Of a stretch of DNA of 64,000 bases, positions 6,402 to 17,588 are shown in pieces (the first letter of the stretch is position 1; every line of letters starts with the position of its first letter). A program made the position numbers and the translations under genes. Source of the DNA: Clostridia bacterium. GTDB lineage: Bacteria; Bacillota; Clostridia; Oscillospirales; SIG627. The stretch covers positions 6,294 through 70,293 of the forward strand of contig JAFWBD010000059.1 of assembly GCA_017507325.1 (NCBI GenBank). Direction: 5' to 3'. A model generated the notes under the pieces. That model was not told the DNA's origin, did no database searches, and saw only the letters and a program-made list of their open reading frames with translations.

Positions 6402-7094
6402 TCAGTACAGCATCAAGCCTCTTTCCAAAAAGCGATTTCGGTATTCTCTCTGCATTTCTTCATCCAGCAGGGAGCGTGAGAAATCAAGCATAATACTTTT
6501 GACGGAAGAATACTCCGCACAGAACTCGGCAAGACGGTCGGGGATTTCGCTGTTGATCCCCGCTATCACGGGTATGCGGATCCGAAACGGAATTTCTTTT
6601 CGGCACATCTCCCGCAAGGTGCTTTCAACACCGAACAAAGAATAAAAGGGGCAAAGTTTTTTGAGAACCTCTTGATCGGGCGTATGAAAATTCACCACAA
6701 AAAGATCGCACACCTCCCCGACACTGACCGCAACGTGCCGTTCAACGTCACCGCAGGTCCAGATCTGAAGACTCATTTTCTTCTCCTTCAGAATTCTTCC
6801 GACTTCAAGGCAAAAGCGATCGTGACGAAGCGGCTCGCGCCCCAAAAAGGTGATTCCCAGCTTTTGAGTTGCGCACCACCTTTGCTCATCAAGCAAATAA
6901 GAAGCCAGATCATGGGCGGAATACGAGTTTTTTTCTTCATTCTCCTCCCACAAAGACTCCCGCACGGACGGAAGAAGAGGAAACGGCGTGCAGGAAGCCG
7001 TACACGTTCCGCGGCAAGCAGCAAACACAACGCCCGTTCGCGTTCCCTCTCCCAAATCGGTTCTGTAATGATAAAATCCTTGAATGGGTACCAT
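6402..7094 (-). CDS. Divergent glycyl-radical activating enzyme-like radical SAM protein
   Basis: GGAGG RBS, ATG 7094; GEGTRTGVVFAACRGTCTASC, GITFLGREPL and RIRIPVIAGINS align with PflA-type motifs. Confidence 0.65.
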   Translation of the reverse strand: MVPIQGFYHYRTDLGEGTRTGVVFAACRGTCTASCTPFPLLPSVRESLWEENEEKNSYSAHDLASYLLDEQRWCATQKLGITFLGREPLRHDRFCLEVGRILKEKKMSLQIWTCGDVERHVAVSVGEVCDLFVVNFHTPDQEVLKKLCPFYSLFGVESTLREMCRKEIPFRIRIPVIAGINSEIPDRLAEFCAEYSSVKSIMLDFSRSLLDEEMQREYRNRFLERGLMLY

Positions 7095-7152
7095 CGATTC
7101 ACCTCCTGACCGCATTGTAGCAGATCATCGGAAAAAGGTAAAGAGTTTTGAC

Positions 7153-7179
7153 ATATTCCTTTTTCGCGATGCATACATT
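7153..7179 (+). promoter_or_regulatory. SigE promoter of spoIVA
   Basis: ATA-16 bp-CATACATT, a near-perfect SigE consensus upstream of a known SigE-regulated gene. Confidence 0.8.
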
Positions 7180-7209
7180 CATACAAAGAAAATGCGGAGG
7201 AAATCGGTA

Positions 7210-8691
7210 ATGAAAGCGAACACATCCATTTATCAGGACATTTCGGCAAGAACGAACGGGGATATTTATTTGGGCGTTGTCGGCCCCGTCAGAACGGGAA
7301 AATCGACCTTCATCAAGCGTTTTATGGAGAAGCTGGTTCTCCCTCAAATGGAAGAGGGCTCCGCCAAGGAACGGGCCAAGGATGAAATGCCCCAAAGCGG
7401 ATCGGGAAAGATTGTTATGACCACCGAGCCGAAATTCGTACCGGAGGATGCCGTTCGCATTCAAATCGATGACGGTCTCGGCTTTCGTGTAAAGCTTGTG
7501 GACTGCGTCGGCTTTACAGTTCCGGAGGCATCGGGGCTCACCGATGAGGGCAGTTTTCGGATGGTAAACACTCCGTGGTCCAAAAGTCCCCTCCCCTTTC
7601 CCGAGGCGGCAAGGCTGGGGACGGAGAAGGTGATACGCGAGCATTCCACCATCGGTGTGGTTGTCACCACGGACGGTAGCTTCGGCCAGATTCCGCGGAG
7701 CTCTTATCCCGGCGCCGAGGAGGAAGTCATCAATGCCATGAAGGAAACGGGAAAGCCCTTTGTTATTTTGCTGAATTCCCAGCATCCCGAGGAGGAAGAA
7801 ACGCAAAATCTCGCGACTTTTTTACAGGAAAAGCATAAGGTTCCCGTTTTGGCAAAAAACTGCTTTGCTATGGAGGAGAACGATTTTCTTGACGTTCTCG
7901 GAAAGATCGTATTGGAATTCCCCCTGCGGGAGATTCGGGTACAGCTCCCGACCTGGCTCTTATCGCTTCCCGAGGACCAAGATGAAAAAAAATCCATTTT
8001 GAATGCCGTTTGCCATACCATAGAGGGTCTGCAAAAAACGGGCGAATACTTCACCGCTTTGGAAGAGCTGAGGTCAATCGAAGGAATTCAGCAAATCAAA
8101 CCTCTTGTTTCGGATCTTGGCACGGGCAGGATCAATCTGGGCATGGATACAGACGAGTCCCTTTATTGGAAAATTCTCAGCGAAGGGAGCGGAATTGAGA
8201 TCCGCTCCAAGGAAGAGATGCTCAAAGTCTTTTGCACGCTCGCTCAGAAAAAGCTTCAGCTTGACCGTTTGGAATCGGCTCTTCGGGACGTGGAGGAGAA
8301 CGGCTACGGAATCGTTCCTCCTTCTCTGGAAGAAATGAAGTTGGAGGAGCCGAAGATCGTTAAGCAAGCCGGCGGTTACGGGGTGAAGCTGAAGGCCAGC
8401 GCGCCCTCCATCCATATGATCCGCGCCAATATTGAAGCGGAGATTTCCCCCATTGTCGGCAGTGAACGGCAGTCGGAAGACATCGTAAAATTCCTGCTGG
8501 AGGAATTCACCGAGGATCCCACCAAGATCTGGGATTCCAATCTATTCGGAAAAAGTCTTTACGAATTGGTAAACGAGGGCTTGAACACCAAACTCAACCA
8601 TATGCCCGCCGATGCAAGGCTGAAGCTTTCGGAGACCCTGCAAAAGATCATCAACGACGGAAGCAGCGGATTGATCTGCATCATTTTATAA
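7210..8691 (+). CDS. spoIVA: Stage IV sporulation protein A (coat morphogenetic ATPase)
   Basis: IYLGVVGPVRTGKSTFIK, TTEPKFVP, C-terminal GSSGLICIIL; 493 aa; GGAGG RBS. Confidence 0.98.
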   Translation: MKANTSIYQDISARTNGDIYLGVVGPVRTGKSTFIKRFMEKLVLPQMEEGSAKERAKDEMPQSGSGKIVMTTEPKFVPEDAVRIQIDDGLGFRVKLVDCVGFTVPEASGLTDEGSFRMVNTPWSKSPLPFPEAARLGTEKVIREHSTIGVVVTTDGSFGQIPRSSYPGAEEEVINAMKETGKPFVILLNSQHPEEEETQNLATFLQEKHKVPVLAKNCFAMEENDFLDVLGKIVLEFPLREIRVQLPTWLLSLPEDQDEKKSILNAVCHTIEGLQKTGEYFTALEELRSIEGIQQIKPLVSDLGTGRINLGMDTDESLYWKILSEGSGIEIRSKEEMLKVFCTLAQKKLQLDRLESALRDVEENGYGIVPPSLEEMKLEEPKIVKQAGGYGVKLKASAPSIHMIRANIEAEISPIVGSERQSEDIVKFLLEEFTEDPTKIWDSNLFGKSLYELVNEGLNTKLNHMPADARLKLSETLQKIINDGSSGLICIIL

Positions 8692-8696
8692 GCTGA

Positions 8697-8770
8697 AAGA
8701 TTCCCCGATACCCGCACAGGTCTTTGTACCGCAAGGACACAGAGCACGGGCATCGGGGATCTTCTTTTTT
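8697..8770 (+). terminator. Long hairpin terminator after spoIVA
   Basis: AAGATTCCCCGATACCCG...CGGGCATCGGGGATCTT followed by a T-run. Confidence 0.75.
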
Positions 8771-8835
8771 GTTACTTCTTTCTTTTCAAAATGGATTGAA
8801 TTTATCCGAAGTTCGTGTTATAATAAAGTGAATAT

Positions 8836-9357
8836 TTATTTTTCCGTTTTGGAAAAATACCCCATCGGGTGCTTGCAGACAGGGCAGATTTGCGGTGCCG
8901 AGTCGCCCGTATAATGATGGCCGCAGTTTTGACAGATCCAGATCTTTTCCGTTCCGCCCGAAAACAAGGAATTGTTCTCCAGCTGCAAAAGAAGAGATCG
9001 AAATCGTTTTTCATGCTCTGCTTCGATCTTCCCCACCATTTCAAAGGTGGCGGCAATCTCCTTCAGCCCCTCTCTTTCGGCTTCCGCAGCGAAATCCGGG
9101 TACATGATTCGGTTCTCGTGGAATTCCGCTTCCGCGGCATGCAAAAGATTCTGACTTGTGGTTTGAATGCATTCCAGCAGATCCAAATAGATTTTAGCGT
9201 GGGCCTTTTCGTTTTTGGCCGTTTCCAAGAAAATATCCGACAGTACCGAAAGTCCTTCCTTTCGCGCCCTTTCCGCAAAGAATTCATACAGGAGGGCAGC
9301 GCTCGCCTCTCCGTTTACCGCAGCTCTGAGGTTTTGCTCCGTTTTGGTTCCTTTCAT
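8836..9357 (-). CDS. rbr: Rubrerythrin
   Basis: MKGTKTEQNL, GEASA, NEKAHA, YPDFAAEAEREG, EAEH, WICQNCGH..CPVCKHP. Confidence 0.93.
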   Translation of the reverse strand: MKGTKTEQNLRAAVNGEASAALLYEFFAERARKEGLSVLSDIFLETAKNEKAHAKIYLDLLECIQTTSQNLLHAAEAEFHENRIMYPDFAAEAEREGLKEIAATFEMVGKIEAEHEKRFRSLLLQLENNSLFSGGTEKIWICQNCGHHYTGDSAPQICPVCKHPMGYFSKTEK

Positions 9358-9420
9358 CAAAAACACTCCTTTCCTGCGGTTATTTTTTCCGAAAAACCAT
9401 TCATTATGCAAAGGTGTATT

Positions 9421-10302
9421 ATGAATCTCTATTCCGTAACACAACTAAAGGATCTTTTGGAACGGCACGGATTTTTCTTCAAGAAAAATCTCGGCCAGAA
9501 TTTCCTTTTAAATGAAAGCACAGCCTTGCGTATCGCAAGCTCCGCCTTTGAAACGCTCTCTCACAAGAAAAAGACCTTGGCCGTGGAGATCGGTCCCGGT
9601 GCAGGGGCTCTGACACTGCAGCTCTCGGAGCTTTTTGACCGCGTGGTTGCCATTGAGATCGATCCGCATCTGATTCCGATTCTGGAAGAAAGCCTTGCGG
9701 GAAGGGATAACGTTACCGTTATGAATACCGATGCCCTTCGCTTCGATTACAAGGCCTTGGAGAGGGATTTTCCCGATTACGAAATTGCGGTTTGCTCCAA
9801 CCTGCCCTATTATATCACCAGTGAATTGATTATGCGGTTTTTGGAGAGCGAAGTCCCCTTTGCCTCGGTGACGGTCCTCATTCAAAAGGAAGCCTGCGCC
9901 CGTCTGATCTCAAAGCCCGGCTGTGCCGATTACGGCTCAATCACCGCCGCTGTTTCCTACTATGCCCGAGCGGAAAAGCTTTTCTTGGTGGGGCCCGGAA
10001 ATTTCATCCCGAAGCCGAAGGTGGATTCCGCCGTACTCCGTTTGATCCCTCACGCTCACCCACCCGTTGAAGTAATGCAAGAATCCTTCTTCTTCAAGAT
10101 CATCCGTGCCGCCTTTTCCGCACGCAGAAAAACCCTACCGAATGCTCTCGGGGTTGCCTTGGGGGAGCTCTTCACCAAGGAAGAAATTGCCGCCGCCTTA
10201 GAGGAATGCGGGATCTCGCTGACAGAGAGAGGTGAAAATCTCTCCTTGAATCAATTTGCGGTTTTGTCCAATACGCTTTGTAAAATAAAGGATAGAAAAT
10301 GA
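9421..10302 (+). CDS. rsmA: 16S rRNA m6,2A dimethyltransferase
   Basis: KKNLGQNFL, EIGPGAGALT, AIEID, SNLPYYIT, FIPKPKVDSAV, RRKTL. Confidence 0.96.
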   Translation: MNLYSVTQLKDLLERHGFFFKKNLGQNFLLNESTALRIASSAFETLSHKKKTLAVEIGPGAGALTLQLSELFDRVVAIEIDPHLIPILEESLAGRDNVTVMNTDALRFDYKALERDFPDYEIAVCSNLPYYITSELIMRFLESEVPFASVTVLIQKEACARLISKPGCADYGSITAAVSYYARAEKLFLVGPGNFIPKPKVDSAVLRLIPHAHPPVEVMQESFFFKIIRAAFSARRKTLPNALGVALGELFTKEEIAAALEECGISLTERGENLSLNQFAVLSNTLCKIKDRK

Positions 10303-11651
10303 AAAAAATTACCGTCTTTTTTGCCGCTCTTTTGGCGGTGCTCTCCTTCACCGCGGCCCCCAAGGCCGCTAAAATTGAAAATCTGGAAAGCATTTATGCA
10401 GGCCTTACCGCAAGTATTTATAAGCCCTATTACGAAAAATCGCCTTATTACGAGGCTTATCGGAAGGAAATCGAGGCCTTAAGCGACTTTCTCAAGCAGC
10501 CCGAGCATCCTCAAGAGGAGATCGATCGGCATCACGAGGCCATCCGAATGGCCTTTGCCAATCTGATGCACGACAGCTTTGATTATTCCGCCCTTTTTGA
10601 AATTGCCGAATTTTACAAGAAAATGGATCTTTCCCTTTTCACGGAGGATTCCCGTCGCGGTCTGGAAAAAGCGATGGAAGCTGTGTTCTATGAATTGAAA
10701 ACACCCACGGTATATCAAAGAGGAACCTTCGATACGGAGCTTTCTTACCGAAGCGTTGTTCAAGAAAACATTGATTCGGTCGAGGAGAGCTTTTTGAGGG
10801 CTTACAGCGCTCTTTCCTTCGTGCCACCCGAGGGACCGATCTCAAAAGATAAGCTTGAGGCTGTTTTGAACCTATGCCAAACGACAGCAAGAAAGGATCA
10901 GATGAGCCAAAGTATCAAGTGGCCTGCCTATGAAAAGGCCGTTACCTCCGTTACGGCAACGCTGGAATCGCCCTCGGCCGACGAGGCCTTCTGCGGGGAG
11001 CAGGCTGTGCTGCTTTTGGATGCTTATCGGAATTTGCTTTTGGACGTATTGGATTTTATGCCTGTTTCCAAATACGTCAATTACTTTGCCACCTTTGACC
11101 CCAATACCTACGTTTCCCAAACCTGGAGTCAATTTGCCGCCGCGGTTTTTGCGTTGGAGGACGTTTCGTTACGCTACCATTTCTTTTACACAAGAGAGAG
11201 TTGTGATGCCGCTTCCTTCCGCCGTCAGACCGACCTGTATTTCTCCACCATCACCGCCGAGGCTCAAGAAGCCTTGGAGCAGCTGATTCCCCTCAGCGAC
11301 TTTGAAGCGCTGCACTCTCTTTGCAACCGTTATCGCGGACTAAAGGTCACCGTCGGGCTGGAACTCAAGCACAACAAGGTGATGCTTGCGGTTTCCCGCG
11401 GACTCTCCTTGCTTTCCGATCCCGAAAGCACCGGCAGTGACGTTGCCGCGGCTTTAGCGGATTTACAGGAAATTGTCAGCGAATACGAGAGAGCTTTGGA
11501 ATTTTTAAATGAAAACGGAACGGCCACGGATCTTCAAAACCGAAAAGCCATGCAGTTGACCCTGGTGTTTTCGCTGGTTTCCGTTGTGCTTGCTTTGGGC
11601 TTTGCGGTTTCCGCCTCCTATAAAAAGAACGGAAGGATCGATTTGAACTGA
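10299..11651 (+). CDS. Secreted helical protein with C-terminal membrane anchor (FIVAR-like repeats possible)
   Basis: N-terminal signal peptide (..AAPKA), amphipathic helical segments, C-terminal TM plus basic tail; overlaps both neighbours. Confidence 0.7.
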   Translation: MKKITVFFAALLAVLSFTAAPKAAKIENLESIYAGLTASIYKPYYEKSPYYEAYRKEIEALSDFLKQPEHPQEEIDRHHEAIRMAFANLMHDSFDYSALFEIAEFYKKMDLSLFTEDSRRGLEKAMEAVFYELKTPTVYQRGTFDTELSYRSVVQENIDSVEESFLRAYSALSFVPPEGPISKDKLEAVLNLCQTTARKDQMSQSIKWPAYEKAVTSVTATLESPSADEAFCGEQAVLLLDAYRNLLLDVLDFMPVSKYVNYFATFDPNTYVSQTWSQFAAAVFALEDVSLRYHFFYTRESCDAASFRRQTDLYFSTITAEAQEALEQLIPLSDFEALHSLCNRYRGLKVTVGLELKHNKVMLAVSRGLSLLSDPESTGSDVAAALADLQEIVSEYERALEFLNENGTATDLQNRKAMQLTLVFSLVSVVLALGFAVSASYKKNGRIDLN

Positions 11652-12367
11652 TGGAAAATACGTACAGAATCGCGGAGCTGGTGATTCGGATGAAGCCCGA
11701 ATACGCCCCCCTTCTCCCGCAATCCGAAGCCTATCGCTACGATGGAAGGGAGGAGTATGACTATCGAATTCATATCAGCGAAGAAATGTACCTCGAATAT
11801 GAAAAGAGATTTCCCGAGGCAGATCGACCGCTGATCGAATATATGATGACGGGAGCCCAATTTTATTCCGCGCTGATCCATCGGCAAGGACTTCTGCTCC
11901 ACGCCTCTGCCGTGGAGCTGGACGGCAAAGCCTATTTGTTCTCCGCCCCCAGCGGAACGGGAAAATCTACCCATACCTCCCTTTGGCTGAAGGAATTTGC
12001 TCCCCGTGCTCGGATTTTGAACGACGATAAGCCCGCTTTGCGCCTGCAAGACGGGAAATTCTACGTTTACGGAACCCCTTGGAGCGGAAAATCCGATCAA
12101 AGTCTCAACCTTAAGGTCCCCCTCCAAGGGATCGCCTTTTTATCCCGCGGAGAAGAAAACCGAATTTCTCACGCTTCCTCGCTTTTTGCCATCCGCTCCG
12201 TTTTGGAGCAAACCGTACGCCCCAAGGAGCCCTCGGCGGCCTCCATGCTGATGGATCTGATCAATCAATTGGTGCAATACGTTCCCATTTATACATTGCA
12301 GTGCAATATGGAGCCCGAGGCGGCTCACGTTTCCTATCAAACCATGTTAAAAGGAGAAATGCTATGA
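11651..12367 (+). CDS. HPr kinase-related P-loop kinase (ScmC-like)
   Basis: LLHASAV, Walker A APSGTGKST, LNDD, GTPWSGK. Confidence 0.8.
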   Translation: MENTYRIAELVIRMKPEYAPLLPQSEAYRYDGREEYDYRIHISEEMYLEYEKRFPEADRPLIEYMMTGAQFYSALIHRQGLLLHASAVELDGKAYLFSAPSGTGKSTHTSLWLKEFAPRARILNDDKPALRLQDGKFYVYGTPWSGKSDQSLNLKVPLQGIAFLSRGEENRISHASSLFAIRSVLEQTVRPKEPSAASMLMDLINQLVQYVPIYTLQCNMEPEAAHVSYQTMLKGEML

Positions 12368-12624
12368 AAATCAAGGACGGATACCTGCTAAAGGAGATTG
12401 CGGGAAATCACGTGGTCATTCCCGTGGGAGCACTGGATTTTGACGGTATGATCAGCTTAAACGAAACCGGTGTTTTTCTTTGGCGTCTTTTGGAAAAAGG
12501 ATGTACCCAAGAAGAAGCCGTAGAGAAGCTGCTTCTGGAATACGAGGTTTCCGAGGAAATTGCCGAAAAGGACGTGGGCGCCTTTTTGGAGATGCTGAAA
12601 AAAGAAAACATTCTCCATGAATAA
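12364..12624 (+). CDS. PqqD-family RiPP recognition element (RRE)
   Basis: AGGAG RBS, ATG 12364; LKEIAG..VVIP, ISLNETGVFLW, LLLEYEVSEE.A..DV..FL. Confidence 0.9.
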   Translation: MKIKDGYLLKEIAGNHVVIPVGALDFDGMISLNETGVFLWRLLEKGCTQEEAVEKLLLEYEVSEEIAEKDVGAFLEMLKKENILHE

Positions 12625-13057
12625 AAGCATTCGCTTTGAGGAAATCATCCCCCTCATTCGGGAAGAGATCCAAAAAGGAAATTCATTTTCCTTTACAGCC
12701 TTCGGAAGCAGTATGCATCCCTATATCCGAGGCGGAAAAGATAAGGTCTGCCTTTCACCGCTCACCTCTCCTCCCAAGGAGGGAGACGTTGTTTTTTATC
12801 AACGGGAAAACGGAGCCTTCGTTCTGCACCGTATCATAAAGATCAAAAACGGGCAATATATTATGTGCGGAGACAACCAATTCTCACGGGAATTCGGAAT
12901 TCGCGCAGAGCAGATCATCGCACGGCTTTCCTTTGTGGAACGAAACGGGAAAGCGATTCGTCCCTCCTCCTTCTCTTCCCAATGCTATCGGTTTTTTTTA
13001 CCTCTGAGAAGATTTCTTCTGCATCTGCGCTACGCTTTGAAAAAATTGCTTTCATAG
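12617..13057 (+). CDS. S24/S26 family peptidase (Ser-His type)
   Basis: GSSMHPYI (catalytic Ser), GDVVFY, VLHRII (His), GDNQ; no N-terminal TM. Confidence 0.85.
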   Translation: MNKSIRFEEIIPLIREEIQKGNSFSFTAFGSSMHPYIRGGKDKVCLSPLTSPPKEGDVVFYQRENGAFVLHRIIKIKNGQYIMCGDNQFSREFGIRAEQIIARLSFVERNGKAIRPSSFSSQCYRFFLPLRRFLLHLRYALKKLLS

Positions 13058-13078
13058 CAAGGGCTGCGGAGGATTTAC

Positions 13079-13921
13079 ATGCACATTATCAAAACCGTCA
13101 ACGGGAGCAGAGGAAAATGGATCGAGGGCTTTCTTCGTCATTTATATCACGGGCACGTATTTGAAAGCTCGGCAACCCTCTCCTACTACTTCTTGTTTTC
13201 GGTCTTTCCCTTGGCCATCTTCTTCAGCGCCTCCTTTTCCACCCTGAATCTCAGCGTGGATTCCCAAGGCGTTTTAACGGGCTTCGTGCCCGATCGCATT
13301 CTGGAGGTTTTGGAGAATTATTTGGAGGAGGTCGCCTACGGAAACACCTTTTCGCTGATCCTTTTGAGCTCTTGTCTGACGGTTTATTCCTTGGGAAAGG
13401 CTCTTCAAACCATGCGCAGAAAATTCCGCGCGGCGTATGGCTTGAAGAACCGTTCTCAATCGGTATGGCAATGGATGATATCCTTTGTTTTCGTATGTCT
13501 GCTTTTGATCTCCTTTTACGCCATGCTTTTTATTATTGTGGCGGGAAATTATATTTTTCGCTATTTTCTCGCTCTGTTTCCTCTATTGGAAAAAGCTTTG
13601 CCGTCCTTTCAGTTCCTTCGTTTTTTTGCCGTAACCTGCTATCTCTTTTTCGTTCTTTTGGGGCTGTATTACGCCCTGCCGGGGATCAAACTCCAAACGA
13701 AAGACGTGTTGCCGGGCACCCTGTTTTCTTTGGTTTCGTGGGTCCTCCTTTCCTATCTGTTTTCCCTTTATCTGGATCGCTTCAGTAATTTTCAAACGCT
13801 GTACGGCTCCTTGGGTGCTATGATCGCCCTTTTGACTTGGCTGTTTCTGATCAATCTGATCCTTTTGACCGGAGCCGCTCTGAATTCTTTTTATTTTGTA
13901 AACAAAGGAAGTGCCGCATGA
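13079..13921 (+). CDS. YihY/BrkB family membrane protein
   Basis: LSYYFLFSVFP, LYYALP, LYGSLGAMIALLTWL. Confidence 0.9.
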   Translation: MHIIKTVNGSRGKWIEGFLRHLYHGHVFESSATLSYYFLFSVFPLAIFFSASFSTLNLSVDSQGVLTGFVPDRILEVLENYLEEVAYGNTFSLILLSSCLTVYSLGKALQTMRRKFRAAYGLKNRSQSVWQWMISFVFVCLLLISFYAMLFIIVAGNYIFRYFLALFPLLEKALPSFQFLRFFAVTCYLFFVLLGLYYALPGIKLQTKDVLPGTLFSLVSWVLLSYLFSLYLDRFSNFQTLYGSLGAMIALLTWLFLINLILLTGAALNSFYFVNKGSAA

Positions 13922-14388
13922 TCAACACCACCCTATGTTATTTGGAAAAAGACGGTTCTTATTTGATGCTTCACCGTATCAAAAAGGAAAACGACGTAAA
14001 CCGCGACAAATGGATCGGAATCGGCGGAAAATTTATGGATCGAGAAAGCCCTGAGGAATGCATACGCCGCGAGATCCTTGAAGAAACGGGGCTGATTCCC
14101 GATGCCCTTCGTTATCGTGGGATCATCACCTTTGTTTCGGACCGCTTTGAAACGGAATGGATGCACCTGTTTACCTCTGATCGCTTTCACGGCAATATGA
14201 TCCCCTGCGATGAGGGGGTATTGGAGTGGGTGAAAAAAGAAGAGCTTTCCCGCCTCCCCCTATGGGAGGGTGATCATATTTTTTTGGATCTGATCCAAAA
14301 AGACTGCCCCTTTTTTTCTCTGAAATTGGTTTATCGGGGAGATCGCCTTCACTCGGCTGTTTTAAATGAAAAGGAAATTTTGCGATGA
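13918..14388 (+). CDS. NUDIX hydrolase (MutT-like 8-oxo-dGTPase)
   Basis: TTLCYLE, KWIGIGGK, Nudix box ESPEECIRREILEETG, LWEGD. Confidence 0.9.
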   Translation: MINTTLCYLEKDGSYLMLHRIKKENDVNRDKWIGIGGKFMDRESPEECIRREILEETGLIPDALRYRGIITFVSDRFETEWMHLFTSDRFHGNMIPCDEGVLEWVKKEELSRLPLWEGDHIFLDLIQKDCPFFSLKLVYRGDRLHSAVLNEKEILR

Positions 14389-14404
14389 TTTCGCATTTCT
14401 TACT

Positions 14405-14431
14405 GTCCCGCCTTTCGGCGGGGCTTTTTTT
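14405..14431 (+). terminator. Terminator of the rsmA...NUDIX operon
   Basis: GTCCCGCC-TTTC-GGCGGGGC followed by T7. Confidence 0.85.
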
Positions 14432-14485
14432 GTTCTGAAAAAGAGAAGCGGCGCATATAGTGTATCAGATTGTGAGGAACCAAAA

Positions 14486-15394
14486 ATGAACGGACTGAAA
14501 AAGCACATCGCCTTTTTTCCACCGAGGATCCGCAAAGCGCTGGAGGCCTATCCCGATTGGGGCTGCATTTCGGAGATCCGCCTTCGCGGAGATATGCCCC
14601 TTTCTCTGACCCACTTTCGGGGAAACGTATTTTTAAACGAAAGCGGAGAGCAGGAAACGCCCCAAAATGCCTTACGCGCCACAAAGGAGGAGATTCGGCT
14701 TTTTGTATTGGCCTTTTGTCGCGGAAACGTTTATCGGTATTTCGACACCTTCAAGGACGGCTTTTTGGTTGATGAGGACGGATATCGCTTGGGGCTGAGC
14801 CCCGGAAAAAAGCAGCGCTCTTTCCGCTTGCCCGAGGACTTTGAGGGAGTGAACCTGCGGATTCCGCGAATGATACGCGGCGCCGCCAAGGAGCTGTTAA
14901 CGCATTTTTCTCATCAAAAGCTTGAATCCACCCTCCTCCTCTCCGCCCCCGGTGCCGGCAAAACCACCTTACTGAGAGATCTTGCCATCACCCTTTCCGT
15001 GGAAAGCGCTCCTTGGCAAGCCAAGCGTGTCTGCGTCATCGACGAGCGGGAGGAGCTGTTTCCCGATGCATTTCGGGCATCTGCGGGGCTTTGCGATATT
15101 CTGAGCGGTTATTCCAAGGCTGAAGGAATTGAAATTGCCACGAGGCTTTTTTCTCCCGAGGTGATGATTCTGGACGAGATCGGCGGCCAAGAAGATGCAT
15201 CTGCCATATTATCCGTTTGCAGCAGCGGATGCATCTTTTTTGCCTCGGCCCACGCCCGCACACTGCAGGAGGCAAAGCAGAGGCCTTTTTTGAAGCTCCT
15301 TTTGGAAGCGGGGGTGTTTTGTCATTTGGCACTTCTTGAAAAATCCGACACCGCCGATTTTCACAGCCGCATTTATTTTTCAAGTGCCTTATGA
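14486..15394 (+). CDS. spoIIIAA: Stage III sporulation protein AA
   Basis: EIRLR, Walker A SAPGAGKTTLLRD, IDEREE, SPEVMILDEIG, ASAH; CATATAGT SigE-like -10 at 14454. Confidence 0.93.
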   Translation: MNGLKKHIAFFPPRIRKALEAYPDWGCISEIRLRGDMPLSLTHFRGNVFLNESGEQETPQNALRATKEEIRLFVLAFCRGNVYRYFDTFKDGFLVDEDGYRLGLSPGKKQRSFRLPEDFEGVNLRIPRMIRGAAKELLTHFSHQKLESTLLLSAPGAGKTTLLRDLAITLSVESAPWQAKRVCVIDEREELFPDAFRASAGLCDILSGYSKAEGIEIATRLFSPEVMILDEIGGQEDASAILSVCSSGCIFFASAHARTLQEAKQRPFLKLLLEAGVFCHLALLEKSDTADFHSRIYFSSAL

Positions 15395-15891
15395 AGCTCT
15401 TCGGAATTCTTTTTCTTTCACTGATCCCGATTCTCCTGGGACTCTTTCGAAGAAGCGCCATCATCAAAAACGGCGGGATCCGCAAGGGCCTGATTTTATT
15501 GTTCGAAAGCATCCAATTTGAGATCGATACCTTTTTGCGCCCTCAGGAGGAGATTTTCACCAGATTCCAAAATCGGGACTTGGAGGAAATCGGCTTCCTA
15601 CCGCTCTTGCGGCAAGAGGTACGAAGCGATCCTTGCTTTGCTCTGAAGCGCTGTGCCGAGCTTCTGTTGGCAGAGGGATCCTTTACCGAGCGGGAAAGAG
15701 AGATGCTCTCGGATTTTTGCGAGCATTTCGGAACCCAGTCCAAAGCCGCCCAATCAGAGGACTGTCAAAGGCTTCTTTCGGTACTGCGGGAGGAGGAAGT
15801 GCGGGAACGCGAAAAGGGAAAGACCGATGCCTCGGTTTCTTTGGCGGGAGGGATCTGTCTCGGAATTGCTTTGTTTATTCTACTGATCTGA
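15391..15891 (+). CDS. spoIIIAB: Stage III sporulation protein AB
   Basis: Operon position; N- and C-terminal TM; ends GICLGIALFILLI. Confidence 0.85.
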   Translation: MKLFGILFLSLIPILLGLFRRSAIIKNGGIRKGLILLFESIQFEIDTFLRPQEEIFTRFQNRDLEEIGFLPLLRQEVRSDPCFALKRCAELLLAEGSFTEREREMLSDFCEHFGTQSKAAQSEDCQRLLSVLREEEVREREKGKTDASVSLAGGICLGIALFILLI

Positions 15892-15904
15892 TAAGGAGAA
15901 AACA

Positions 15905-16099
15905 ATGGACGTAACCTTGATGTTGAAAATCGCGGGAGTCGGAATGCTTTCGGGGGTTTTATGTCAGATTCTGAAAAGCAACGGAAAAGAGGAGCAGGCA
16001 GGATTCGTTACCTTAGGCGGGATTATTTTGGTGCTTTTGATGCTGATCGGAGAAATCTCCGCTCTCATCAATACGGTACGCAACACGTTTGGCATATGA
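15905..16099 (+). CDS. spoIIIAC: Stage III sporulation protein AC
   Basis: MDVTLMLKIAGVG..QILKSNGKEEQA; 64 aa. Confidence 0.93.
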   Translation: MDVTLMLKIAGVGMLSGVLCQILKSNGKEEQAGFVTLGGIILVLLMLIGEISALINTVRNTFGI

Positions 16100-16482
16100 A
16101 CGCTGTATTTTCGGCTTGCTTTTTTGCCATTTTTACGGTGATTCTTCTGGGGATCTCCGAGCACATTTCCCCTCGCTTCAAGGCTCCGATGCTGGCGGGA
16201 GCCGGTATTCTCCTTTTTTTGATCATGCTTTATTACTTTGCTCCGGTTTTGAAAAAGCTCAGAGAAATCGCAGATTACGCCGCCATGGGAGAAGGATTTT
16301 CTATACTTTGGAAGGGTCTCGGTGTTTCCCTTGCGGTCTCCGTTACCGCATCCTTTTGCCGCGATCTTGGAGAAGAAGGCGTGGCCTCCAAGCTGGAAAT
16401 GTGCGGTAAGGGAGCGGTGCTTTCGCTGACCCTTCCGATTCTGGAGGACGTTTTGGATCTGATCGGGGAGATGCTGGGATGA
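16096..16482 (+). CDS. spoIIIAD: Stage III sporulation protein AD
   Basis: ATGA overlap; KGLGVS..ASFCRDLGEEGVASKLEMCGK..LPIL. Confidence 0.9.
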   Translation: MNAVFSACFFAIFTVILLGISEHISPRFKAPMLAGAGILLFLIMLYYFAPVLKKLREIADYAAMGEGFSILWKGLGVSLAVSVTASFCRDLGEEGVASKLEMCGKGAVLSLTLPILEDVLDLIGEMLG

Positions 16483-17588
16483 AACGAATACGGATCGGAA
16501 TTTTTATCATCGCCGCGATGCTCTTTGTGCTTCCCTTCTCCGTCTCTGCGGCCCAAGATGACGATATCCGAGCGTTTTCGGATTTTGATTCTCTTTGGGA
16601 CGCGCTTCCTTCCGAAGTCGAGTGGGAAGGCGTTCAAGCTCTTTTGGAGGGAGAGGATCCCAAGGGAATCTTTGCGTATTTCGGAGAAAAGATCTTGGCA
16701 TACTGCAAGGAAGGCTTTCAAAAGCAGATCGGCTTTTTCATCGGTCTTTGCCTGATTCTTTTGATCAGCGCCGTAACCGAAAGCGTCAAGGACAGCTTTT
16801 CCCCTTCGCTTCGCGGAGCCTTCGATCTTCTGTTTCTTCTTTCGGCAACGGTGTTTTCCTATGAGCATTTTTCCGAAACTCTCTCGGAGGCCGCAATGGC
16901 CACCGAGGGGATCGCATCCTTTATGATCGCCGTGCTTCCCGTTAACGCCATGCTTCTGACCCTTTCGGGCTCCGTAAAAACCGCCGTTGCTCAAAACACC
17001 AATATCAGCCTTGTACTTTCCATATTTTCCACCTTAATCCACAGCGTTCTGATGCCCCTTTGCAAAGCGCTTTTCTGTTTTTCCTTCCTATCGGGTCAAG
17101 AGAAGTCCCCCTTGAAGGGTATGATCGTCTTTGGTAAAAAGACCGTCAAAACCATCTGCATTTTCTGCTTTTCCACCTTGCTTGGTATTCTGGGACTGAC
17201 TCACGCGCTGGCAAGCTCGGCCGATTCGGTGGCCATGCGCTCCGTTCGCTTTGCGGCAGGAACCTTCATTCCCATTATCGGATCCGCCGTGGGTGAGGGC
17301 AGCAAAACCCTCGGTGCCTCACTCCGACTTGTAAAAACACAGTGCGGAGTGCTTTGTATCGCGGTGCTTGCGATTCTGATCCTAAAGCCATTGTTGCTTC
17401 TGTACATACAAAAGCTGTTTCTGAGCTTTGCCGCCTCCGTGGGTGAAATTCTGGGGGAGAGCCGTTGCAGCGGATTTTTCCGATCCATCGGACAAGTATT
17501 GGATCTGATCGCGGCTCTTCTGATCTCGCAAGGCTGCTATTTGATCTTTTATATCACTCTTTTTATCAACAGCGGAGGAAATCTGTAA
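16479..17588 (+). CDS. spoIIIAE: Stage III sporulation protein AE
   Basis: Polytopic membrane protein; RFAAGTFIPIIG motif; operon position. Confidence 0.9.
   Translation: MKRIRIGIFIIAAMLFVLPFSVSAAQDDDIRAFSDFDSLWDALPSEVEWEGVQALLEGEDPKGIFAYFGEKILAYCKEGFQKQIGFFIGLCLILLISAVTESVKDSFSPSLRGAFDLLFLLSATVFSYEHFSETLSEAAMATEGIASFMIAVLPVNAMLLTLSGSVKTAVAQNTNISLVLSIFSTLIHSVLMPLCKALFCFSFLSGQEKSPLKGMIVFGKKTVKTICIFCFSTLLGILGLTHALASSADSVAMRSVRFAAGTFIPIIGSAVGEGSKTLGASLRLVKTQCGVLCIAVLAILILKPLLLLYIQKLFLSFAASVGEILGESRCSGFFRSIGQVLDLIAALLISQGCYLIFYITLFINSGGNL

Follow-up and report, generated by a model that had tools for sequence, protein, structure and literature searches.

What do an HPr-kinase-like P-loop kinase, a stand-alone PqqD-type recognition element (RRE) for peptides made on ribosomes and then modified post-translationally (RiPPs) and an S26-type peptidase act on, when their genes lie together in a chromosomal run with neither a cyclase nor a peptide precursor? 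The question is raised by a 64,000-nucleotide stretch of a Clostridia bacterium (assembly GCA_017507325.1, contig JAFWBD010000059.1, positions 6,294 to 70,293 of the forward strand), the whole of which is called the window below. Judged from sequence comparison, the trio is probably the maturation core of a linear polyphosphorylated peptide (LPP) type RiPP pathway, i.e. kinase, RRE and leader peptidase (K-B-S), which keeps to one fixed, housekeeping-like place in the genome and works in trans on small leader-bearing peptides encoded elsewhere.

The three genes are located on the plus strand at 11651..12367 (LppK-like kinase, 238 aa), 12364..12624 (LppB-like RRE, 86 aa) and 12617..13057 (LppS-like leader peptidase, 146 aa). 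The kinase has no Pfam match, and its NCBIfam matches stay below threshold, with ScmC at 5.8e-9 (35.7 bits; cut-off 125) and HprK_rel_A at 1.3e-6 (27.8 bits; cut-off 200). In a profile of 13 kinase sequences, the P-loop residues S101, G102, G104, K105 and T107 as well as H84 are invariant, and HPr kinase 1ko7 is the top PDB match (E = 0.0013). The RRE matches PF05402 above the cut-off (7.2e-19), and its residues N33, Y60, D70 and F74 are near-invariant across an alignment of 16 sequences.

The peptidase is found by several models under their cut-offs: Pfam Peptidase_S24 (0.0029, 17.7 bits; cut-off 23.3), NCBIfam archaeal-type signal peptidase I (sigpep_I_arch; 4.3e-8, 33.2 bits; cut-off 51.85) and the SipW model (20.5 bits; cut-off 190). 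The sequence-only reading had described it as a Ser-His enzyme lacking a transmembrane segment, and this is borne out: S32 and H71, together with D86, are invariant in 9 aligned homologues, and no hydrophobic membrane-anchor span is present at the N-terminus, where the sequence and the AlphaFold2 (AF2) model both have a charged helix instead. In the AF2 model (pLDDT 86.6), which resembles SpsB, SipA and human SEC11, a beta core is flanked by an amphipathic helix at the N-terminus and a long one at the C-terminus. The fold and the Ser-His-Asp catalytic residues are common to SipW and the archaeal-eukaryal signal peptidases I (S26B), while the window peptidase differs from these in being anchorless, in the coupling of its gene to those of an RRE and a kinase, and in its NCBIfam scores under the cut-offs. 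We name it an anchorless SipW/archaeal-type S26 peptidase.

The sequence-only reading also took this combination for an undescribed logic, which is not supported, as the cassette corresponds to the LPP RiPP system of Popov et al. (Nat Commun 2026, published May 2026; PMC13381572). In that paper, the reference cluster is lppA-K-B-S-D-N of Paenibacillus alginolyticus, which encodes the precursor LppA, the HprK-like kinase LppK, the RRE LppB, the SipW-like peptidase LppS, the MsbA-like exporter LppD and the nucleoside triphosphate (NTP) transferase LppN. LppA, of which a cluster carries one to three genes, is 35-200 aa long with the leader YxxPxVLxHQxIxFETxxS. Residues N33, Y60, D70 and F74 of LppB hold the Tyr and Pro of this leader, LppS (catalytic S29, H68 and D93) cleaves after Thr-1 in an LppB-dependent way, and several phosphates are placed on the core Ser3 by LppK. 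The clusters are cyclase-less, often lie within capsule loci, and the pathway is reported mainly from Bacilli; in the same account, the activity of LppN is not demonstrated, and the final product and biological role are unknown (PMC13381572).

The window trio likewise consists of an HprK-like kinase, a discrete Tyr-type RRE and a SipW-like Ser/His/Asp peptidase in the order K-B-S. Its peptidase residues S32, H71 and D86 are the counterparts of S29, H68 and D93 in LppS, and the four LppB residues that contact Tyr and Pro are the same residues in the window RRE (PMC13381572). In order to compare the two systems, the published leader was back-translated and scanned over one genome per species, which gave 48 loci, all in Bacilli, while hidden Markov models (HMMs) of the kinase, PqqD and S26 proteins were built solely from the window and its Clostridial relatives. 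These Clostridial HMMs find all three proteins in 37 of the 48 Bacilli loci, in the order precursor-K-B-S; the remaining loci contain PqqD only (7), kinase only (1), S26 and kinase (1) or none of them (2), and the peptidase HMM by itself matches in 38 of 48. Against one Paenibacillus locus, the three window proteins are 28-29% identical, with E-values as weak as 3e-11 (kinase: 29%, 2e-14; peptidase against the protein in the LppS position: 28%, 6e-13). In a quick tree of 107 peptidases with SH-aLRT support, 36 of 38 Bacilli peptidases form one supported group (SH-aLRT 95), the window peptidase and all but one fragmentary Clostridial peptidase fall into the other (SH-aLRT 99), and a long branch lies between. 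On these sequence comparisons, the trio is homologous to LppK-B-S within a separate Clostridial branch, and by analogy it would also work like LppK-B-S.

The three genes tend to occur together. At E<=1e-5, the peptidase HMM detects its family in 177 of the 399 genomes scored within the class; the weakest of these matches may be ordinary signal peptidases. From the matches listed, 60 loci were fetched, picked to spread across genera; within about 8 kb, the peptidase is found in 60, PqqD in 51, the kinase in 43 and all three in 40, and 19 of 60 have a compact same-strand trio like that of the window. Within the genus, the kinase is present in 17 of 19 genomes (7 of 21 for more distant relatives), and all 11 loci fetched keep the order 450-aa gene, kinase, PqqD, S26, YihY, so the co-occurrence that the sequence-only reading expected was found. 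Natural gene fusions of kinase and PqqD (about 392 aa; L022 at 6648-7826, L100, L103, L111) and of kinase and S26 (375 aa; L017:7355-8482) occur, which argues that kinase, PqqD and S26 act as one complex. Recurrent neighbours in 69 clustered loci are ABC exporters (31), NTP_transf_5 proteins (12), radical SAM proteins (9) and SLH-domain proteins (9), as well as the capsule genes Wzz and CpsB. A larger layout recurs in L059, L062, L075, L081, L086, L108 and L113, and comprises PqqD, S26, ABC exporter, secreted protein, precursor, kinase and SLH-domain protein, in this order. Its secreted protein is mostly about 300-360 aa long, with 571 aa in L075, and its SLH-domain protein about 520-550 aa.

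Clustering of the small open reading frames (ORFs) around these 69 loci yielded a leader family, whose peptides start with M-K-K-x-Y-x-x-P. Over 55 distinct peptides and counted from the Tyr, the motif is Y0 (53), P3 (55), E6 (29), F/L10 (48), T/V12 (33), E13 (37), E/D14 (49), L/I16 (44) and S19 (35). A leader-like peptide is detectable beside the enzymes in 23 of 69 loci, a lower bound given by an HMM derived from the same loci, and the other 46 show no adjacent precursor.

The genome from which the window comes (as part of contig C44) measures 1.64 Mb in 72 contigs, at an estimated completeness of 63%. The sequence-only reading saw no precursor, exporter or nucleotidyltransferase, which is right for the window, where the leader HMM detects no leader-like frame across the entire 64 kb at E<=0.01, but not for the genome. 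In the genome-wide leader search that it had called for, covering all 41,309 frames, the leader HMM gives a single match (E = 5.7e-4), and the runner-up is at 4.6. This candidate precursor is an ORF of 35 codons, MKKEYQKPQAEIIHFKTEEILKDSIVVLPEHEIDP, at C38:32139-32246 (L118:12140-12247). It satisfies every conserved position of the 55-peptide motif, with the leader Y-x-x-P ... F-x-T-E-E-h-L-x-x-S, and is cysteine-free. The ORF begins 16 nt past the stop of a gene for a 1631-aa BspA-type LRR protein with a signal peptide (L118:7228-12123), and a Shine-Dalgarno-like GGAAAAG lies 7 nt upstream of it. Folding gives a hairpin of -23.4 kcal/mol (z -4.9) downstream of the peptide, which a simple terminator scan did not call, and a second, weak one (z -1.95). 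The peptide has 0 NCBIfam families, and the best match among 17 members of the leader family is at 0.19. Further downstream on C38 lie a Sel1-repeat protein (L118:12518-13000) and a weak match to RHS repeats, in an ORF that runs off the contig and is longer than 1346 aa (L118:14996-19033).

Such peptides are not a peculiarity of this genome: searched with the precursor alignment, 23 of 40 relatives give matches, and among them are 17 of the 19 genomes of the genus, with 1-6 peptide genes scattered over each. As for the leader-directed cleave-and-phosphorylate system that the sequence-only reading proposed, with a substrate encoded elsewhere or a full-size protein as its target, the first half thus has its candidate in the C38 peptide. 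The second half has found no support. It is unlikely that the trio matures a full-size protein, for which the co-translated 450-aa secreted protein encoded directly upstream (10299..11651, plus strand) would be the most plausible substrate. The 450-aa gene overlaps the kinase start in a TGATG and lies ahead of it in all 11 loci of the genus, many other Clostridia have a secreted-protein gene directly upstream of precursor and kinase, and LPP precursors of up to 200 aa are reported (PMC13381572). Yet the N-terminus of the 450-aa protein is signal-peptide-like and carries no leader-like Y-x-x-P motif, its family is limited to the genus in the sample examined, a typical small candidate precursor exists elsewhere in the genome, and not one frame of contig C44 is among the best 25 leader-HMM matches, which extend to E 100.

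The genome also has a candidate transferase for the pathway, again outside the window. Its sole NTP_transf_5 gene, called LppN-like at the family level only, is located on C38, on the same strand as the candidate precursor and 7.4 kb upstream of it. In this locus (L118:33-5086) it is preceded by a flippase-like gene and by genes for an epimerase/dehydratase, a GHMP sugar kinase and a sugar-1-phosphate nucleotidyltransferase; together these could provide activated sugar to the NTP_transf_5 transferase. NTP_transf_5 is present in 24 of 24 kinase-positive relatives, and within the genus it never shares a contig with the trio.

The lack of a precursor, LppD and LppN in the window, and of an adjacent precursor in those 46 of 69 related loci, would also be expected of a decaying LPP remnant which has lost these parts and no longer functions. 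We consider this very unlikely: in a genus with kinases only 53-63% identical, the reading frames have stayed open and the catalytic residues and the start overlaps are retained, and these genomes still encode peptides with the leader as well as NTP_transf_5.

The likeness to LPP extends beyond the trio, to the missing cyclase, a candidate leader with Y-x-x-P and F-x-T, an NTP_transf_5 protein in the genome and a link to sugar and polysaccharide genes. The differences concern the arrangement: here the precursor is on a separate contig, with 1-6 scattered per genome in the genus, no exporter adjoins the trio or is clearly present, the transferase is unlinked to the trio, and the trio lies in a housekeeping/sporulation neighbourhood and not in a capsule locus. 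Moreover, the conserved Ser is 7 residues past F-x-T in the Clostridial family and 3 in LPP. The cassette is a dispersed Clostridial form of a known system, stripped to its core.

Several observations weigh against an LPP-type pathway acting in trans. The published leader pattern, searched by regular expressions, is unmatched in the genome and in the Clostridial loci L016-L117, and a looser expression gave 3 matches in the genome, all judged to be chance. The leader HMM was built from ORFs chosen near the same gene family and is partly circular, and just one precursor was found in the own genome at its 63% completeness. As the spacing from F-x-T to the Ser differs (7 versus 3), one can only guess at the position of the cut and at the Ser that is targeted. 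The profile of the 16-sequence RRE alignment has LppB (9x8z) as its top PDB match (2.8e-18), but 4 Bacilli sequences from the LppB position are included in it, and a search with the single RRE sequence places LppB (0.0097) no closer than two lasso B1 proteins, TbiB1 (4.3e-5) and PbaB1 (0.0085). No dedicated exporter stands out among the 8 full-length ABC exporters of the genome; the best own-genome match to the cluster-linked exporters reaches 184 bits and 27% identity (median), versus a within-group median of 294 bits. Finally, in the 40 relatives, kinase and peptide are both present in 20 and both absent in 13, 4 have only the kinase and 3 only the peptide, a table that overstates the association as the relatives are kin and non-independent; all of the seven discordant relatives except G022 and G031 are less than 90% complete or hold other parts of the system.

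The top NCBIfam matches of the kinase point to another class, the radical-SAM-linked cassettes, i.e. SynChlorMet (ScmC/ScmD) and GeoRSP (HprK-related kinase A/B, PqqD), which pair an HPrK-related kinase with a PqqD-family protein in the same manner; a radical SAM gene with Cys-rich precursors is found in 9 of 69 related loci as well. That the trio is such a cassette, of one of these kinds or the Cys-rich Clostridial type, with its radical SAM enzyme elsewhere, is nevertheless highly improbable. SynChlorMet and GeoRSP are defined with radical SAM/SPASM enzymes and the window run has none, the scores are far under the NCBIfam cut-offs (35.7 vs 125, 27.8 vs 200 and 32.2 vs 100), the C38 candidate precursor is cysteine-free, and the radical-SAM loci sit on other branches of the peptidase tree. 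The radical-SAM variant of the kinase/PqqD/S26 set, with Cys-rich precursor cores, occurs in L022, L019, L078, L084, L089 and L109, where PqqD and radical SAM are followed by precursor(s), kinase and S26, and looks like a separate, apparently uncharacterised sub-family.

A split paeninodin-type lasso cluster, with cyclase, B2 and precursor elsewhere in the genome, has almost no probability left: although paeninodin-type clusters share the HPrK-like kinase (acting on a Ser of the precursor), the discrete RRE and, for tailoring, an NTP transferase (PMC13381572), the RRE matches lasso B1 proteins in the PDB and a genome 63% complete leaves room for missing parts, lasso systems require a macrolactam cyclase and the cysteine protease B2, and neither was found over cut-off in this genome, the sequence-only reading being right on the absence of both, with B2 (Transglut_core3) also absent from 19 of 19 same-genus genomes searched and present in 1 of 41 genomes overall, a kinase-negative one. 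The lasso RRE favours W-x-x-P and is without an Asp at the D70 position, which the window RRE has, and, according to the same paper, an S26-type peptidase like that of the window is tied to the cyclase-less LPP clusters. An Asn_synthase match on C14, the sole one in the genome, was dismissed as a lasso cyclase at 20.2 bits, under the cut-off.

In the LPP-type pathway proposed for the trio, the RRE would bind the Y-x-x-P of a precursor such as the C38 peptide, as the conserved pocket residues suggest, the binding being shown for LppB only. By analogy with LppK, the HPrK-like kinase would put one or more phosphates on the conserved Ser 19 residues past the Tyr. The S26 peptidase, given the leader by the RRE, would cleave after F-x-T, a site proposed from the F-E-T of LppA. 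The C38 NTP_transf_5 protein, encoded beside the sugar kinase and the sugar-1-phosphate nucleotidyltransferase, may then decorate the phosphate, which is speculative.

The trio is part of a tightly packed plus-strand run from rsmA to a NUDIX gene, in which consecutive genes overlap by 1-8 nt with a 21-nt gap as the single exception. The run is led by rsmA (16S rRNA dimethyltransferase; 9439..10302, TIGR00755 1.3e-70), whose stop overlaps the start of the 450-aa gene. The 450-aa protein begins with a segment resembling a signal peptide and ends in a hydrophobic anchor, with no Pfam or NCBIfam match; its gene is coupled translationally to both rsmA and the kinase, and occupies the slot held in many relatives by a secreted protein and then a precursor. 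The kinase/PqqD junction is an ATGA overlap and the PqqD/S26 junction an 8-nt overlap. The PqqD start at ATG 12364 agrees with the MKIK N-terminus of the homologues, and the alternative, a longer GTG frame from 12301, is probably not used. The last two genes encode a YihY/BrkB-family membrane protein (13079..13921, plus strand; PF03631 3e-44) and a NUDIX hydrolase (13915..14388, plus strand; PF00293 6.4e-17). YihY was considered as a substitute exporter and dropped as unsupported, as it lies near the trio only within the genus and in just 1 other of 69 clustered loci. The run is closed by a terminator-like hairpin at 14405..14424 (plus strand; 8 pairs, 7 of them G-C, then TTTTTTTGTT), the top-ranked terminator-like site within 8600-15000. 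Family matches, overlaps and hairpin thus agree with three overlapping genes in an rsmA-led run that ends at 14405. By ORF reading and a Pfam search of the window, no cyclase, radical SAM, exporter or NTP_transf_5 gene is in the run.

The neighbourhood of the trio is one of sporulation genes. The run is bordered upstream by spoIVA (7084-8691) and a rubrerythrin-like gene on the other strand (8836-9444), and downstream by an apparent spoIIIA operon (14366-17588), whose first gene, judged by eye, is a 342-aa ATPase-like ORF. The genome has another PqqD-family frame on contig C23 (L002:1489-1854, minus strand; 121 aa, 36.8 bits); it adjoins a gene for a 445-aa oligopeptide-transporter-like membrane protein, and no kinase or peptidase is present in the 3.2 kb read there.

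Of 30 peptide loci from the own genome and its relatives, 2 were dropped as the start was not located. In 23 of the remaining 28 (including relatives L121-L148), the peptide gene starts -1 to 41 nt after a same-strand long ORF. Among these 23 upstream ORFs, 20 are at least 376 aa long, most extend beyond the 1.5-kb flank and one is a radical SAM gene. On visual inspection, some 15 have C-terminal helices that resemble one another (type A-A-L-V-Y-I-Q-A-A); several are weakly alike (23-30% identity), with no Pfam family. The order secreted protein, precursor, kinase is found also at loci with a kinase-adjacent precursor. The position of 23 of 28 peptide genes just after long ORFs, here that of the 1631-aa BspA-LRR protein, suggests that peptide and surface protein are made together. 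As a tentative proposal, which we hold to be possible rather than probable, each LPP-type peptide of this Clostridial clade may be the specific partner of a giant protein of the cell surface: a single-copy, housekeeping-like K-B-S core would serve dispersed precursors, each just past the gene of a large secreted protein, and the phosphorylated, perhaps sugar-decorated acidic peptide would act at the envelope with the protein encoded upstream, be it to anchor it, as an adaptor or in its maturation.

Annotators can label the three genes as kinase, RRE and leader peptidase of the LPP type. The enzyme trio of the LPP type is very common in Clostridia, with the peptidase family in 177 of the 399 sampled genomes, and it can occur as a bare core with its substrates elsewhere, which accounts for many cassettes of the "orphan RRE" kind, likely to be overlooked or wrongly classed by tools for genome mining. 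The link of the substrate genes to genes for giant surface proteins and sugar activation gives a concrete lead to a function in the cell envelope and, if true, a companion role with surface proteins would be the first clue to the purpose of LPP.

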